A DNA stretch of 64,000 nt from an uncultured Methanoregulaceae archaeon (GCA_963841015.1 CAWJAX010000003.1:160001-224000), one strand, 5' to 3'; positions 54,463-63,053 are shown, numbered from the stretch's first letter. Numbers and translations are program-made. Notes: a model not told the origin generated them from the sequence alone.

Positions 54463-56712
54463 ATGTATAAAGTATTATATGTCGATGATGAACCGGTCCT
54501 CCTTGAAATCGTAAAAATTTTTCTGGAAAAAACAAAGGAGTTCACCATTGACGTAACTACTTCGGTAAACGAAGTAATTAAATCTGAAAAACTGAAAACA
54601 TACGATGCAATAATTTCTGATTATCAGATGCCGGGCATGGATGGTATATCCTTCCTCAAATACGTTCATACCGAACTTGGCGATATCCCTTTTATTATTT
54701 TCACCGGGAAGGGAAAAGAAGAGGTCGTCATTGCGGCACTCAACAACGGTGCTGATTTTTATATCACAAAAGGCAGCGATCCCCGATTCCAGTTTGATGA
54801 ACTTGCTAATAACATAAAAAAGGCGGTTAAAAAAAGGCGGATACAGGAAGAATATAAAAACTCTGCACAGCGGTTATCAGATCTTGTCAACTTCCTTCCT
54901 GATGCAACTTTTGCCATCGATCTTGATGGAAAAGTAATTGCCTGGAACAAAGCAATGGAAGAAATGACCGGGGTGAAAAATTCATCGATCATGGGTGAAG
55001 GAGATCATATCTATTCCCTGCCCTTTTATGGAAAAAAACAGGATTTACTTCTCGATCTTGTACTGCATGACAAAAAAGAGATCAGAGAGAAATACCCCTC
55101 CATCATTCACCAGGACAACAAGCTCATTGATGAGAAGGAGTTTCCGATTCTCCATAACGGAAAAGGAGCCTGCCTCTGGTTAATTGCATCCCCGCTCTAT
55201 GATGCAACCGGTACCATTACCGGTGCAATACAGGTTATCAGGGATGTCACGGAAAACAAGCGGGCGGAAAAGGCCTTAAAGGAAAGCGAAGAACAATACC
55301 GATCTCTGTTTGAATCTTCACAGGAGGCTCTCCTTCTTCTCGAAAATACCCGGTTTAAAAAATGTAACAGCAAAGCTGTGGCTCTGTTCGGATGCACAAA
55401 AATGAAAGAGATCGCAGGGCGATCGCTTATTGATTTTTCCCCGGTTGTGCAACCCGATCGGGCGGGTTCTGAGCAAAAATTTCAGGAGAAAATTTCAGAA
55501 GCCATTGAAGGCTCCACGCAGGTTTTCGACTGGGAATTTACCCGCCTGGATGGAAACCCCGTTCATTCTGAAGTCACACTTAACCGGGTAATAATCGGGG
55601 GAAAGACCCTCCTCCAGGCTATTGTACGGGATGTGAGCGAACGCAAAAGGGCGGAAGATGCACTGAAGAAGAGCGAACGAATCTACCGGACCGTTGTTGA
55701 GGATCAAAACGAATTGATTTCACGTTTCCGTCCCGACGGTACGCAATTGTTTGTCAACGAGGCATTCTGCCAGTATTTTAAAAAATCACGTGAGGAGCTG
55801 ATCGGAAAGAAATTTTTCCCCCGGATCCCGGCAGAAGATCATCGTCAGGTCAGGGAACATTTTGCATCCCTCAAAAAGGAGAATCCTTCTGCCATAGACA
55901 CCCACAGGGTAATAATGCCGGACGGTTCTCTCCGTTGGCAGCGGTGGTCTGACCGGGCAATTTTTGACAAGAGAGGCTCAATTGTCGAATACCAGTCCGT
56001 GGGACAGGATATTACCGAACAAAAGCGGGCGGAAGATGCACTTGCCCTTGCATGCCAGAAAATGAACCTTCTCTCAAGCATCACCCGGCATGATATCCTG
56101 AACCAGCTTACCGTTCTTTCCGGATATCTGGCGTTGTCCGAAGAATTTGCTTCTGATGAAAAACTTCTTGGTTTTATCAAAAAAGAAGCCACTGCAACAG
56201 AGCGGATTAACCAGCAGATTACGTTCACGAAACATTACCAGGACATCGGGGTCCAGGCGCCTCAATGGCAGAATGTGCATGATACAATTACTGCTGCTGC
56301 AACATTGCTTGACCTGAGTTCAGTTACTGTTCAGATACCCTCCTCCAATATCGAGATCTATGCAGATCCCCTTTTGGGTAAGGTTTTTTACAATCTCCTT
56401 GAAAATGCAGTCAGACATGGGCATGCTACCAGTGTTGTTCAGTTCTCTTTCCAGGAAACCGGGGATACGCTGATGATTGTGTGTGAGGATAATGGTGGCG
56501 GCATTGACAAGGAAACAAAGAAACATCTGTTTAAACGAGGGTATGGAAAAAACACTGGATTCGGCTTATTCCTTATACGGGAGATCCTGTCCATCACCGG
56601 AATAACCATTGATGAGAACGGAGAACACGGGAAAGGTGCACGCTTTGAGATCACGGTGCCGAATGGTACGTACCGGTTCAAAACGAATCAGGAAATCTCT
56701 GAAAAAAAATAA
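54463..56712 (+). CDS. hybrid sensor histidine kinase REC-PAS-PAS-PAS-HK
   Basis: YVDDE..SDYQMP, three PAS/PAC, TRHDILN, NLLENA, DNGGG, TGFGL. Confidence 0.92.
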   Translation: MYKVLYVDDEPVLLEIVKIFLEKTKEFTIDVTTSVNEVIKSEKLKTYDAIISDYQMPGMDGISFLKYVHTELGDIPFIIFTGKGKEEVVIAALNNGADFYITKGSDPRFQFDELANNIKKAVKKRRIQEEYKNSAQRLSDLVNFLPDATFAIDLDGKVIAWNKAMEEMTGVKNSSIMGEGDHIYSLPFYGKKQDLLLDLVLHDKKEIREKYPSIIHQDNKLIDEKEFPILHNGKGACLWLIASPLYDATGTITGAIQVIRDVTENKRAEKALKESEEQYRSLFESSQEALLLLENTRFKKCNSKAVALFGCTKMKEIAGRSLIDFSPVVQPDRAGSEQKFQEKISEAIEGSTQVFDWEFTRLDGNPVHSEVTLNRVIIGGKTLLQAIVRDVSERKRAEDALKKSERIYRTVVEDQNELISRFRPDGTQLFVNEAFCQYFKKSREELIGKKFFPRIPAEDHRQVREHFASLKKENPSAIDTHRVIMPDGSLRWQRWSDRAIFDKRGSIVEYQSVGQDITEQKRAEDALALACQKMNLLSSITRHDILNQLTVLSGYLALSEEFASDEKLLGFIKKEATATERINQQITFTKHYQDIGVQAPQWQNVHDTITAAATLLDLSSVTVQIPSSNIEIYADPLLGKVFYNLLENAVRHGHATSVVQFSFQETGDTLMIVCEDNGGGIDKETKKHLFKRGYGKNTGFGLFLIREILSITGITIDENGEHGKGARFEITVPNGTYRFKTNQEISEKK

Positions 56713-58979: not shown

Positions 58980-59510
58980 TCATGCTGCACCCTGGTATCG
59001 CTCTTCCTTCTGAAAATAACCCATCAGGATAGAGAACAGGCCAAACACAAAGGCGAAAGTGCCAATAATGATGATGATGAGATTTTTTGAATAATCAGGA
59101 AAATACCAGAGAAAAGCGGCAAGCAGGATAATAGCGGAAATGAACATACCCGGGATAAGGATATATTTGGTTTTTGGATGGGTGAGTGCAAGCGTGATAT
59201 CGGTGAACCCGTTATAACAGGCAATTCCCGCGATAATAAGCAGAAAAATGATCGCGAAGAATTGCTGCGCTAAAAATGAGAGAACTGCAAGAATGAGCAA
59301 TACTGCTGAAATACCAAACCAGAATAATGATTCATCGCTGTTTGAAGTGATGGCGAGGAAAAGAAAAACTGCGATAACCAGTCCGGTCAGGATAAGAAAT
59401 ATCACATAAAACGTTGCAAGCATCAATTCCAGATCGGGAAAAAGCAGAGCTAAAAGTCCAAAAATTACGCCGATAATGCCCCAGACAATGCATGATAAGC
59501 TTGTATTCAT
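58980..59510 (-). CDS. HdeD/DUF308-like six-TM membrane protein
   Basis: WGIIGVIFGLLALLFP start, six hydrophobic helices. Confidence 0.65.
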   Translation of the reverse strand: MNTSLSCIVWGIIGVIFGLLALLFPDLELMLATFYVIFLILTGLVIAVFLFLAITSNSDESLFWFGISAVLLILAVLSFLAQQFFAIIFLLIIAGIACYNGFTDITLALTHPKTKYILIPGMFISAIILLAAFLWYFPDYSKNLIIIIIGTFAFVFGLFSILMGYFQKEERYQGAA

Positions 59511-59781
59511 GGTAGTATGACCGTAAAGGAATCGGTTTGCACGGGTTTCCTAATACCGTGTTAGTGCCACAACTACAAAATTTATCCTATTTTTCCGCCA
59601 CTCCATTACCACAAATATTCACCTGTTACCCTCAACCGGGTCATCGATTCTAAAAAAGACCGGAATCCCTTTTTGTGCTTTTTGCTGGTAGTTAACTAGT
59701 CTTTCTTACTACTATCTTGTACTATTTTCAATATATGACAAGTATACAAACATTTAATTATTATCGTGCAACTTTAGGAGT

Positions 59782-60213
59782 ATGGATAACTTAACCCTTA
59801 AAATCAAGAAGCGTGCATTTCCGAGCCACGGACGGGTGCGAATCCACGAGTCGAGACTTACGGATCTCCAGATTGTCAACGGCGATCACATTGATCTCAT
59901 CAATGAAACTGCGAAAAAAACAGTCACGGTCACTGTTATTTCTGACACCATGGTTGGAAAAGATGAAATCCGGGTCAGTGAAGAGGACCTGAAGTCTCTC
60001 GGACTCAAGGAAGGCGAAGAGGTATCGATTAAAAAATCCCTCGGGATCAAGGAAAAGGCATCCAAAGCTGCCGCTGATGTATCGGCCGGGGCCAAGAAAG
60101 CCGGAAGTGATGTAGCAACCGGAGCGAAGAAAGCCGGGGCTGCCGTGGGAAAAGCCGCTGGCAGTGCAGCTGACAGCGTGAAGAAAAAGGTGAAAGGAAA
60201 AGATGACCTTTAA
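59782..60213 (+). CDS. stand-alone CDC48/NSF-N-like double-psi barrel fused to Ala/Lys 11-mer repeats
   Basis: GRVRIH...L.I..GD.I.L and EIRVS...LKSLGLKEGEEVSI half-repeats; AGGAG RBS; no AAA domain. Confidence 0.7.
   Translation: MDNLTLKIKKRAFPSHGRVRIHESRLTDLQIVNGDHIDLINETAKKTVTVTVISDTMVGKDEIRVSEEDLKSLGLKEGEEVSIKKSLGIKEKASKAAADVSAGAKKAGSDVATGAKKAGAAVGKAAGSAADSVKKKVKGKDDL
60067..60198 (+). repeat. 33-bp (11-aa) imperfect coding tandem repeat
   Basis: AAADVSAGAKK / AGSDVATGAKK / AGAAVGKAAGS / AADSVKKKVKG. Confidence 0.7.
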
Positions 60214-60261
60214 CCTCCCGGGGAATCCCGGTAAGGTGGTTCAACGTACTAAATCGGAGAG

Positions 60262-60681
60262 GTGATTCATATTATTCCAACATCACAAACAACTACAATT
60301 GTTGCGACATCGCCGCCATTAATTAATGACACGTCGTTTCTGGTAATTCTTGCAATTTTTATCCTTATCTTTATCTGGCTCATTGTCCGTGAATTTCGCC
60401 TTAAGGATGCCGCGAAACATAGCACCCAGCTGGAACAGGACAAGCTTAAAATCATCCAGATGGATGCAGCAACCAAGGCTTATCCGTTTACCCGGCTATC
60501 GCCAGAACAGACAGCAGAGATCAGAAACGTGGAAGACGAGAATATAACTCTCGAGACAAATATTTTTGCCCGGGAAAAACTCGTCGAGAAGCGACTTGAC
60601 AGGCTCGAGAATTATGTCAAGGTCAGAAAACTGGACAATATGATAGGTAAGATTCAGACAGAAGAGAAGAAGGTGAAATAA
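60262..60681 (+). CDS. single N-terminal TM plus coiled-coil protein
   Basis: FLVILAIFILIFIWLIV followed by heptads; GGAGAG before GTG. Confidence 0.8.
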   Translation: MIHIIPTSQTTTIVATSPPLINDTSFLVILAIFILIFIWLIVREFRLKDAAKHSTQLEQDKLKIIQMDAATKAYPFTRLSPEQTAEIRNVEDENITLETNIFAREKLVEKRLDRLENYVKVRKLDNMIGKIQTEEKKVK

Positions 60682-60683
60682 GA

Positions 60684-60989
60684 ATGAATACGGTTGTTAA
60701 CCAGACCGAAACAGCCCCGGGATACTGGAGCAAGGTCTCCAATTTTTCTGCGTCAGTCGGGTCAAAAGTTCCCACGTTTGATAAATCCATGGATGCATAT
60801 TTCGACCAGAACTTTGCGTCCATTATTGAGGAATGGGATCTCTTAACCGATAGTGATCTCCACAAGCTCGAATACCGGCTTTCCGAGATAACCAATGAAA
60901 TCAGCACCCTTTTTGCAGAAAAAATGGTGATAGAAAAACGAGTCGGAAACCTGGACATTCTGGTTTCTTCCATGGAGGGGTCAAAATGA
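60684..60989 (+). CDS. coiled-coil protein, EW[DE]L-motif paralog 1
   Basis: MDAYFDQNFASIIEEWDLLTDSDL followed by heptads. Confidence 0.8.
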   Translation: MNTVVNQTETAPGYWSKVSNFSASVGSKVPTFDKSMDAYFDQNFASIIEEWDLLTDSDLHKLEYRLSEITNEISTLFAEKMVIEKRVGNLDILVSSMEGSK

Positions 60990-61207
60990 GCGTCATGAAA
61001 AATTACATGAATGCCTATGTTGACCGGCGGATGAAATCTGTTGTTGAGGAATGGGACCTTTCCCGGAAGGATGATATTACAGATTTCACGGCACGGCTCG
61101 ATGCTATCGAACAGGAAATCCCGCGGCTGAAAGCGTCCAAAAAAGCGAGTGTGGAAAAACTGACAGAACTTGAAATCCGTGCACGAAAACTGAAGGAGAG
61201 GATCTGA
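60986..61207 (+). CDS. coiled-coil protein, EW[DE]L-motif paralog 2
   Basis: MNAYVDRRMKSVVEEWDLSRKDDI followed by heptads; ATGA overlap with the upstream gene. Confidence 0.8.
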   Translation: MSVMKNYMNAYVDRRMKSVVEEWDLSRKDDITDFTARLDAIEQEIPRLKASKKASVEKLTELEIRARKLKERI

Positions 61208-61208
61208 T

Positions 61209-61565
61209 ATGGACTGGTTTGAATTCATTATTCTTGTCCTCTTCATAGCGGCCGCATTTTTCCTTATCTATTATTACTTCCGTGGGGCTAAAGGGAACCT
61301 TTCGGTGACTCGACCCGTAGAGAGCCGGGTGGACGAGTACCTTGACCGCAGGTTTGAAAGTCTGGTCGATGAATGGGAACTGGTAAACCAGCCAAAACTC
61401 CAGAGGTTCAAGGAACAGAAATCAAAAGAACTTGAACAGGATGAGGCCCGCATTAACGATTTAAAGAAATTCGAACTGGATCTGGAGAGTTCCCTGACAA
61501 ACCTGGAGACCCGGCTTGACACTATTGAAAAAGGACTGGCTCAAAAAGGAAGCGCCAAAAAATAA
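61209..61565 (+). CDS. N-terminal TM plus coiled-coil protein, EW[DE]L-motif paralog 3
   Basis: TM helix, VDEYLDRRFESLVDEWELV, then heptads. Confidence 0.8.
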   Translation: MDWFEFIILVLFIAAAFFLIYYYFRGAKGNLSVTRPVESRVDEYLDRRFESLVDEWELVNQPKLQRFKEQKSKELEQDEARINDLKKFELDLESSLTNLETRLDTIEKGLAQKGSAKK

Positions 61566-61614
61566 GACCGCCGGCAGTGATCTCTTCCTTGAATTAAAAG
61601 AAGAGATCACCGTA

Positions 61615-61836
61615 ATGCGGAAACAAGGTGAGCCACCGGTTAAAAATCCCCACAGTTTCGCACAATATATGTGTGATCTGTGTAACTCTCCCTTTACAAT
61701 TTCTGAGCTCCGGCAATGTGTCTTGTGTGGCCGATGGGCTTGTAATACCTGCTGGACTGACCAGTATTACACCTGCAAATCATGTACAGGAATTATTAAA
61801 ATCCATTCAATACGAAAAACTCCCTTTAGAGAGTAG
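61615..61836 (+). CDS. 8-Cys FYVE/RING-like zinc finger protein
   Basis: CDLC-x11-CVLCG-x3-CNTC-x7-CKSC. Confidence 0.78.
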   Translation: MRKQGEPPVKNPHSFAQYMCDLCNSPFTISELRQCVLCGRWACNTCWTDQYYTCKSCTGIIKIHSIRKTPFRE

Positions 61837-61951
61837 GGATGAGCAGATAATTAACAAGTCAGATAATCTGTTTTAATAAATTGCCGAAATCCCCTTTTTT
61901 CTCGTGAATTCCAGTATCAGCACGTACAGTAACCGGACAGGTATAATGAAA

Positions 61952-62062
61952 GGGGGACATGCCCTTCCTCCCTTTTCGGCCCTGAATAACGAGCACTGAT
62001 TTCAGGTTACCTTTTTTGGAGTTATCGTTTTTTTGGGGCGGGAGCCGAAGCTAAGGTGTAAA
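61952..62062 (-). repeat. copy of ~110-bp dispersed intergenic repeat
   Basis: Minus strand GGCTCCC...CGATAACTCC (exact 10-mer)...CAGGGC...GGCATGTCCCC is collinear with 21889-22001. Confidence 0.7.
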
Positions 62063-62498: not shown

Positions 62499-63053
62499 TT
62501 GCATCTCATAGCCGAATACAGGGTATGGCTGATGATCCTGAGGGAGTCTCGTTTGGAACCAGAGGTCCCTGCCGAAGATAAAACTGCTGTCACTGAATCG
62601 CAGACAAGGGGTCCTGCATTCTACGGTGCGCTTGCGCTGGTCGGGGTTCTTGTTCTGTTGATCGTGTTTTTTAATGTATCAGGCACCCGGGCATCTTCAG
62701 GAATGCTCCTGACACAGAATACCTGGACGCTCCAGTCCTTTGTCGATTCAGGGGGTGTTCTTGTCCCGGCCATCCCCAAAACATCAGTAACTGCCAGATT
62801 CAAGACAGATGGCACGATGAGCGGATCTGGCGGGTGCAACAGGTACAATACATCCTATACAACAAAAGATTTGGCGATATCCATCTCCCAGCCGGATATG
62901 ACCGAAATCTATTGTGAAAATTCACGTGTCATGCAACAGGAGTCAGCGTACATCGATGACCTTTCAAAAGCAGAGGAGCTCCGGGTGAATGAATCAAACC
63001 TGAACCTGTACGATAAAACCGGAAAACCCGTGCTAATGTTTGTAGCGACGTGA
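62499..63053 (+). CDS. META/HslJ domain protein with membrane anchor
   Basis: TWTLQS, TARF..DG.MSGSGGCNRY, T..YC....MQQESAY. Confidence 0.85.
   Translation: MHLIAEYRVWLMILRESRLEPEVPAEDKTAVTESQTRGPAFYGALALVGVLVLLIVFFNVSGTRASSGMLLTQNTWTLQSFVDSGGVLVPAIPKTSVTARFKTDGTMSGSGGCNRYNTSYTTKDLAISISQPDMTEIYCENSRVMQQESAYIDDLSKAEELRVNESNLNLYDKTGKPVLMFVAT

Follow-up and report, generated by a model that had tools for sequence, protein, structure and literature searches.

What might six small and tightly coupled genes contribute to a methanogenic archaeon, when none of their products scores above the curated threshold for any enzyme family, in Pfam or in a second family library? This question is raised by a stretch of 64,000 nucleotides (nt) from an uncultured Methanoregulaceae archaeon (GCA_963841015.1 CAWJAX010000003.1:160001-224000), which is referred to below, at its full length, as the window. 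Six small open reading frames (ORFs), termed g1 to g6 and all located on the + strand, span positions 59782-61836 of the window. An earlier reading of this DNA, called the original prediction here, had described six co-oriented genes without enzyme motifs, and both descriptions hold. The reading favoured in this work, in which our confidence is evenly balanced, is that the cassette is a real, conserved operon whose products make up a cytoplasm-facing, membrane-anchored and non-enzymatic scaffold or tether with two adaptor modules. The six genes are as follows, with protein lengths in amino acids (aa).

g1: 59782-60213, + strand; 143 aa; Cdc48/p97-N-type double-psi beta-barrel (residues 1-88), then a Lys/Ala/Gly-rich tail ending ...KDDL

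g2: 60262-60681, + strand; 139 aa, GTG start; predicted membrane helix at about residues 24-44 (Kyte-Doolittle 3.07 at residue 24)

g3: 60684-60989, + strand; 101 aa; soluble paralogue of the g5 cytoplasmic domain

g4: 60986-61207, + strand; 73 aa; minimal soluble copy of the g5 domain, its start overlapping the g3 stop by 4 nt

g5: 61209-61565, + strand; 118 aa; predicted membrane helix at residues 4-23 (Kyte-Doolittle 2.58 at residue 6)

g6: 61516-61836, + strand; 106 aa from a TTG start; helix 19-30, 8-Cys zinc finger, helix 88-101

Gene order, coupling and probable transcription

Conservation of the cassette was assessed in 26 loci around matches to PF14445, the Pfam family of the g6 finger, which were drawn from three GTDB families of Methanomicrobiales; the window makes 27. 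The order g1-g2-g3-g4-g5-g6 is unchanged in all 26 related loci, and the junctions inside the cassette are just as regular. The g2-g3 junction measures 10 nt or less in 26 of the 27 loci, the g3-g4 junction measures 10 nt or less or overlaps in all 27 (overlapping in 24, mostly by 4 nt), and the g4-g5 junction lies between -4 and +3 nt in all 27. In the window, the first four intergenic gaps, from g1 to g5, are 48, 2, -4 and 1 nt, as the original prediction had given them, and the comparison of gene order in relatives that it had proposed came out in favour of a conserved cassette. Its fifth gap, 49 nt before g6, assumed an ATG start at 61615 and has to be replaced by an overlap of 50 nt.

The g6 frame is open 5' of this ATG, and the extension reads 'M-x-L-W-K-K ... 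DLFxxLKxEI' in most of the 27 sequences (the window and its 26 relatives), three of which diverge at the first residues. Because the extension is conserved and the internal ATG is absent from g6 of several relatives, g6 likely starts at the TTG at 61516, with GGAGA located 6 nt 5' of it, which would give a protein of 106 aa and an out-of-frame overlap with g5. Read in this way, g5 and g6 share 61516-61565 (50 nt) in two frames, and overlaps of 29-62 nt are present in 27/27 loci, the g6 starts of the relatives having been picked by the same rule as in the window. This overlap goes beyond the original prediction, as does the finding, described below, that a two-gene form is nearly universal in Methanobacteriales. 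An antisense ORF (60623-61246, 207 aa) was set aside, as conservation tracks the + strand genes.

Sequencing data are consistent with expression of the cassette. Eleven of the 18 sequencing runs listed as containing part of the stretch are recorded as RNA, and contigs of four metatranscriptome runs from three studies cover 59799-61893. Single contigs span every junction, namely g1/g2, g2/g3/g4/g5 (one contig of 742 nt) and g5/g6, and the whole cassette is probably transcribed. In the four RNA runs, no contig covers the intervals 59300-59700 and 61926-62026, and no inference was drawn from this. Two candidate signals that flank the cassette come from a reading of the sequence only.

59730..59781, + strand: presumed promoter and ribosome-binding site of g1; A/T-rich with TATA-like stretches, and AGGAG 4 nt 5' of the ATG

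61895..61900, + strand: possible archaeal oligo-T terminator; a T6 run about 60 nt 3' of the g6 stop

Barrel, helical proteins and zinc finger

The protein g1 combines a well-predicted barrel with a repetitive tail. Against Pfam CDC48_N it reaches E 5.6e-7 and 30.1 bits, below the cut-off of 35.1. In the AlphaFold2 model, the block-mean pLDDT (predicted local distance difference test) is 86-93 for residues 1-80, 76 for residues 81-90, and below 50 for residues 92-143. A Foldseek search of the PDB with this model returned p97/CDC48 N domains at E 2e-8 and probability 1.00, with a root mean square deviation (rmsd) of 1.2-1.5 Å over 82-90 columns and about 17-23% identity in the alignments. The model was also placed by Foldseek on designed double-psi beta-barrels, which a PDB profile search found as well, at 7e-5. 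The self-similarity of the tail peaks at offsets 11, 22 and 33 (0.30, 0.30 and 0.26, against 0.10-0.22 elsewhere), and its composition across orthologues is 21% Lys and 15% Ala. The tail profile touches apolipoprotein A-IV, apolipophorin-III and SHERP at E 0.007-0.4 in the PDB profile search. In addition, g1 ends in [DE]L in 17 of the 27 orthologues, often as K-[DE]-[DE]-L (60199-60210 in the window), an end that may serve as a docking peptide.

Membrane helices are predicted in g2 and g5 only, at the N-terminus in 27/27 orthologues of each, where the best 19-residue Kyte-Doolittle mean is 2.9-3.1 (2.58 for g5 of the window); the other four proteins (g1, g3, g4 and g6) reach at most about 0.8. 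Basic residues come after the helix, with a median of 0 Lys/Arg before and 4 after it in g2, and they follow the helix in g5 too, which suggests that the N-terminus of both proteins lies outside and the bulk in the cytoplasm. The architecture of g2 would accordingly run from a short outside N-terminus through the membrane helix to a cytoplasmic helix, a PFTRLSPEQ loop and another helix. In g5, the juxtamembrane segment 'RPxESRVDEYLDRRF..V.EWxL' is conserved and leads into a coiled-coil-like helix, and residues 80-112 match designed coiled coils at E 3e-4 in a PDB profile search. The motif of g3 is 'YFD...IIEEWxLxT..DL..LE.RL', followed by a helix, and the domain common to g3, g4 and g5 can be written as 'D.YLD....hI.EW.L.T..DL..LE.RL' plus a long helix. 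On profile comparison with hhalign, g5 pairs with g4 at 98.1% (E 9.4e-14) and with g3 at 97.4% (E 1e-11), by which g3, g4 and g5 are paralogues. Moreover, no relation of g2 to these three was detected beyond the membrane helix.

Known families approach these helical proteins from below their thresholds. Phasin (PF05597) matches 18 of the 27 g3 orthologues below the cut-off, with a best E of 9.4e-5; in the window, g3 scores 16.1 bits and g4 15.6 bits against a cut-off of 28.8, while TIGR01837 gives 14.8 bits against 94.7. Weak BMFP matches were found in three orthologues, and the Pfam matches listed for the cassette proteins include no SNARE family. PDB profile searches with g5 and g2 returned designed coiled coils or weak unrelated rows only, and g5 met only 'hypothetical protein' clusters in the ESM Atlas. 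The source names listed for homologues of the cassette proteins are 'hypothetical' or an automatic coiled-coil guess, and one g5 homologue was auto-annotated 'phasin'. Complex prediction for g2(45-139), g3(28-101) and g5(30-118) with g4 as partner scored 0.75-0.77; the score was 0.00 and 0.00 when the partner was swapped for unrelated proteins and 0.76 when g2 was swapped, so the prediction weighs neither way.

The last protein, g6, has a curated Pfam family. It matches PF14445 (Prok-RING_2) at E 6.2e-33 and 113.2 bits against a cut-off of 22.4, over model positions 1-55 of 56, and scored 114.2 bits in the genome search. Its Cys residues C53, C56, C68, C71, C76, C79, C87 and C90 are invariant in 27/27 orthologues. 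The AlphaFold2 model, built without zinc, has a mean pLDDT of 82 and places a binuclear cross-brace-type finger between helix 19-30 and helix 88-101. When this model was compared by VIA-align, the 17 best rows were all FYVE or FYVE-type, at Z 3.9-6.1 (middling by the tool's own note) and an rmsd of 1.9-4.0 over 48-64 residues; PHD fingers came next, and a Slp4 'RING' row at Z 3.0 stood below the FYVE-type chains. Foldseek gave weak matches only, with FYVE domains leading and RING/U-box chains ranking low at E of at least 0.8. The profile of g6 against the PDB has TFIIE-alpha at E 0.0016 as the best of its weak rows, and the score against the Pfam FYVE family PF01363 is 18.6 bits, below the cut-off of 27.8. 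FYVE domains bind phosphatidylinositol 3-phosphate (PI3P) by the motifs WxxD, R(R/K)HHCR and RVC. None of these is present in g6, which reads ...SFAQYMCDLC..., ...ELRQCVLCG... and ...YYTCKSC... and has no His pair and no basic cluster. The Prok-RING_2 family reportedly comes from work by Burroughs, Iyer and Aravind in 2011 (Mol Biosyst 7:2261), and that work may also describe this gene neighbourhood. In the full texts searched, Prok-RING_2/PF14445 appeared only in unrelated eukaryote work, and nothing was found on a RING finger in Methanomicrobiales.

Most of what the original prediction had said about the proteins is borne out by these results. The double-psi barrel of g1 without an ATPase is recovered among p97 N domains and its 11-mer repeats in the offset-11 periodicity; g2 and g5 are N-terminally anchored, g3 and g4 soluble, in 27/27 loci by Kyte-Doolittle values; g3-g5 are related by hhalign at 97-98%; and g6 has its eight Cys throughout. 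The term 'FYVE-like' survives for the predicted fold of g6, whereas its curated family is Prok-RING_2 and the lipid-binding motifs of FYVE domains are lacking.

Distribution and the two-gene core

PF14445 occurs once in the source genome. Across its own order, Methanomicrobiales, it was found in 60 of 201 genomes, in 55 of them above the cut-off, and it is unevenly spread over the families sampled: 36/43 genomes in f1, 15/39 in f4, 3/20 in f2, 0/12 in f3 and 0/43 in f5, with weak partial matches only in 5/43 of f6. In the phylum, 50 of 401 genomes were positive, and full-length matches are confined to Methanomicrobiales in the sampled genomes. All of these genome surveys are samples, in which 'not found' does not equal absent. 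The profile of g4 behaves in step with the finger. It was found in 27 of 91 genomes of the order, with exactly three copies in 26, one weak match in one genome (E 2.3e-4, inside a 928-aa frame) and none in 64, and in 19 of 261 genomes of the phylum, all of them f1 and f4. Because the 26 three-copy genomes are all PF14445-positive as well, the cassette behaves as an all-or-none unit.

A simpler arrangement was found outside the order. The g4 profile had 145 matches among 1.8 billion representative proteins, and among these are proteins of 115-200 aa, one of them from Methanopyrus, in which a g5-like N-terminal membrane helix is followed by a Gly/Lys-rich repeat and the EWxL domain; the repeat in the Methanobacteriaceae g5-like protein was recognised by reading the sequences. 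Long repetitive proteins (1000-2300 aa) among the matches were set aside, as their similarity is confined to the generic coiled-coil portion of the profile. When species genomes were scanned, 80 loci were obtained, nearly all from Methanobacterium, Methanobrevibacter or Methanobacteriaceae. In 76 of the 80, the g5-like gene is immediately preceded by a g2-like ORF (E 2e-5 to 1e-18); three of the remaining four are cut by contig ends, and one is without a g2-like ORF. The first-pass filter has a sensitivity limit, as the g2 profile misses a Methanobacterium genome (G544) in which the ORF is present. ORFs like g1 and g6 were not found within 6 kb on each side of the Methanobacteriaceae pair. Within the phylum of Methanobacteriaceae, 248 of 266 genomes encode the EWxL domain, and an EWxL protein, usually with a g2-like neighbour, occurs in nearly every sampled genome of Methanobacteriales, an order that includes the gut genus Methanobrevibacter.

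In the g2 tree, 27 Methanomicrobiales sequences and 75 Methanobacteriaceae sequences are parted by one long branch with 100/100 support. Because this branch is long and fully supported, the sharing of g2 between the lineages appears to be old rather than the result of recent transfer, and the tree fits either an old split or an old transfer. The pair of a g2-type and a g5-type gene is therefore the conserved core, and this two-gene module would be the older of the two forms, from which the cassette of Methanoregula and its relatives was elaborated. Methanomicrobiales would then have tripled the g5-type component and added the repeat-carrying barrel protein and the zinc finger.

Several further observations were made on the Methanobacteriaceae-type genes. 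Some Methanobacteriaceae genomes have 2-5 EWxL copies, and a second locus type (L086, L089-L091) has shorter proteins of 128-134 aa and other neighbours. Two loci with a Methanobacteriaceae-type pair, L123 (titled Bacteroidaceae) and L068 (titled Methanomicrobiales), fall inside Methanobacteriaceae in the g2 tree and are probably mis-binned or mislabelled contigs. In one protein of 320 aa (P0250), an unrelated N-terminal part that is Hint- or intein-like by eye is joined to the EWxL domain, and in another (P0154) an unrelated N-terminal part is joined to a g4-like protein; both may be fusions or assembly artefacts. The pair is located between frhADGB with an M24 peptidase gene and dnaJ/dnaK, and a functional link drawn from these neighbours was rejected, the arrangement being taken as family-wide synteny. 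A literature search by guessed Methanothermobacter locus tags found nothing.

The flanks of the six-gene cassette are variable. The ten recurrent flank clusters that were scanned encode VTT, DUF308, deoxyhypusine synthase, orotidine monophosphate (OMP) decarboxylase, CbiZ and major facilitator superfamily (MFS) proteins, or belong to no family. A gene for a DUF308/HdeD-like membrane protein (58980-59510, - strand) lies divergently upstream of the cassette in the window; DUF308 genes flank three of the 26 other loci (L024, L038 and L043), in differing positions and genera, a weak recurrence that amounts to 4/27 with the window. The geranylgeranyl-reductase-like neighbour in the window, which matches flavin adenine dinucleotide (FAD)-binding families only, is beside the cassette in 0/26 other loci. 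With these two counts, the lipid link that the original prediction had drawn from the neighbours finds no support. A VTT/DedA-family gene stands directly downstream of g6 on the same strand in five of the 26 loci (L019, L021, L026, L040 and L045), from several genera, and none is in the window. As well, a gene for a META-domain protein (62499-63053, + strand) lies downstream of the cassette in the window, and its relatives are upstream of the cassette in L040 and L045. A hybrid response-regulator and triple-PAS histidine kinase of 749 aa (54463-56712, + strand), 3 kb upstream, is not conserved with the cassette.

A proposed membrane scaffold, its alternatives and known systems

If the cassette encodes a scaffold or tether, g2 and g5 would be its anchors, each by one N-terminal membrane helix, and their cytoplasmic helices together with the soluble g3 and g4 might form a hetero-oligomeric helical bundle. 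Two adaptors could be attached to this bundle. The barrel of g1 is of the p97/Cdc48-N type, a fold that binds peptides or proteins, and its 11-residue-periodic amphipathic Lys/Ala tail, of the type that lies flat on lipid surfaces, may touch the lipid surface; g6, a two-zinc FYVE-like finger flanked by helices, would be the second adaptor. The assembly might thereby organise or protect a membrane surface and keep client proteins there.

A number of points weigh against such an assembly. In many complete genomes of the order the cassette did not turn up (f3 0/12, f5 0/43), and it is dispensable there. None of g2-g5 reaches the cut-off of a family of known function, and their role is deduced from architecture alone. 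Mutual binding of the products is suggested only indirectly, by the genomic signals of coupling and co-occurrence. No flanking gene cluster recurs in more than six of the 26 loci, and the neighbours give no consistent functional hint. The contigs from RNA libraries may include DNA carry-over and cannot prove a single transcript. In addition, the g1 tail, with pLDDT below 50, may not bind lipid at all and could instead serve as a disordered, hydrophilic linker or bind nucleic acid.

Part of the same evidence can be read in other ways. The cassette might be a quality-control platform resembling endoplasmic-reticulum-associated degradation (ERAD), on which g6 and g1, held by the anchored g2 and g5, would pick substrates for Cdc48/VAT, the proteasome or LonB encoded elsewhere, perhaps with SAMP-type tagging. 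The Pfam family of g6 is named prokaryotic RING finger, Foldseek aligns the g1 model with the p97 N domain as found in its complexes with the membrane-anchored partners gp78, Derlin-1, RHBDL4 and VIMP, and VIMP itself is laid out as an N-terminal anchor with a cytosolic helix. We consider such a platform unlikely, however: no AAA ATPase, E1, E2, ubiquitin-like or JAB gene is among the ten recurrent flank clusters scanned, g1 is without the Nc half, to which the p97 N domain owes its adaptor-binding cleft, the g6 model is closer to FYVE-type fingers than to RING E3 domains, and no barrel or finger was found within 6 kb on each side of the Methanobacteriaceae core. Decidedly unlikely, too, is a coat in the manner of phasins or late embryogenesis abundant (LEA) proteins, in which the EWxL proteins and the 11-mer tail would enclose a hydrophobic inclusion or protect the membrane during acid, desiccation or osmotic stress. 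Although weak Phasin PF05597 matches extend over 18 of 27 g3 orthologues and g4, beside three BMFP matches and the one g5 homologue auto-annotated 'phasin', every Phasin score is below the cut-off. The periodicity of the tail and the apolipoprotein profile touches would suit a coat, as would the DUF308/HdeD-like genes by 4/27 loci and the VTT/DedA genes by 5/26; yet no polymer-synthesis gene is among the scanned neighbours, the membrane anchors favour the cell membrane over a free granule, and these methanogens are not known to store polyhydroxyalkanoate (PHA). The roles in fusion, fission or a lipid or polymer inclusion put forward in the original prediction likewise found nothing beyond these sub-threshold Phasin matches.

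A scaffold for cell division or cell shape, comparable with the small bitopic coiled-coil proteins FtsB/FtsL/DivIC or ZapG/YhcB of bacteria, would share the same general build, namely an N-terminal anchor, a coiled coil and neighbouring genes that resemble paralogues; the core occurs almost throughout one order, which fits housekeeping, and one g2 orthologue touches a ZapG-like family at E 0.018. FtsB and FtsL face the periplasm, whereas the charge distribution puts the g2 and g5 helices in the cytoplasm; with no division gene among the scanned conserved neighbours and no cassette found in many sampled Methanomicrobiales genomes, this role seems very unlikely. Membrane-tethered gene regulation strikes us as extremely improbable; here the membrane proteins would sequester both g1, as an AbrB/VatN-like barrel whose basic tail binds DNA, and g6, as a zinc ribbon of the TFIIE type. 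Cradle-loop barrels do include AbrB-type DNA binders, g1 touches an 'addiction module antidote' model (E 0.11), the g6 profile touches the helix and zinc ribbon of TFIIE-alpha (E 0.0016), and the g1 tail is 21% Lys, but all these matches are far below significance; the best structural matches of the barrel are p97 N domains and not AbrB, and the repeat of the tail, amphipathic with a period of 11 residues, differs from the Pro/Ala/Lys histone-like type. A viral or defence origin was rejected, since PHROGs gave one match of no assigned function (E 0.0024) and PADLOC three coiled-coil-type matches (E 0.001-0.007). Strong matches to a known complex, viral proteins included, would have spoken against the original prediction by its own terms; none to a known complex, virus or defence system appeared in the PDB, PHROGs or PADLOC searches.

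The anchored, non-enzymatic scaffold or tether with two adaptors thus remains the preferred reading, and a bolder version of it can be drawn by analogy. The cassette could be a prokaryotic machine for membrane tethering or remodelling, assembled from module types of eukaryotic trafficking and ERAD: a FYVE-like finger flanked by helices in the manner of Rab effectors, a barrel of the p97/NSF-N type, a membrane-anchored helical bundle of four chains and a curvature-sensing amphipathic repeat, with the Methanobacteriales pair as the minimal ancestral form. This version is highly improbable in our estimate; were it right, archaea other than the Asgard group would have a system for membrane dynamics that is unrelated to ESCRT or Cdv. 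Whatever its role, a conserved, probably transcribed membrane assembly without an assigned role is a gap in methanogen cell biology. The domain families themselves were already known, and a testable handle comes from the connection with a two-gene module that is nearly universal in Methanobacteriales.

The motif '...L.T..D/E...L..R...LE' followed by a coiled-coil helix is common to the cassette proteins, Phasin PhaF/PhaI (PF05597) and BMFP/UbiK (PF04380), but the cassette proteins never score above the cut-off, have no PHA genes and have membrane-anchored partners, which argues for resemblance and not membership. SNARE proteins carry a C-terminal anchor after the coiled-coil motif, whereas the anchors of g2 and g5 are N-terminal, a difference that the original prediction had rightly pointed out. 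The tail of g1 shares its 11-residue periodicity and its Lys-rich Ala/Val/Thr/Gly make-up with the class A amphipathic 11-mer proteins, such as apolipoproteins, alpha-synuclein and group 3 LEA proteins, although no homology to them is detectable and the tail is predicted to be disordered in isolation. The barrel of g1 has the same double-psi fold as the Nn part of the Cdc48/p97/VAT N domain; unlike that domain, it is without the Nc beta-clam subdomain and the AAA+ ATPase, and ends near residue 88, where the repeat tail is fused instead.

With FYVE and FYVE-type fingers (EEA1, Vps27 and endofin; melanophilin and rabphilin), g6 shares the eight Cys, the C-x2-C-G-x3-C-x2-C core spacing and the C-terminal helix, and its helix-finger-helix layout also occurs in Rab effectors, yet as a FYVE domain it fails both on the PI3P motifs and on the Pfam score. 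It is a full-length member of Prok-RING_2, a family without a tested function that is named RING, yet in fold prediction it comes out closer to FYVE-type fingers than to RING E3 domains. The cassette has, as stand-alone modules, two domains otherwise best known from eukaryotic systems of membrane and protein quality control, namely a barrel of the p97-N type and a FYVE/RING-like finger, and it is a tractable place to ask what such modules do without an ATPase or ubiquitin.

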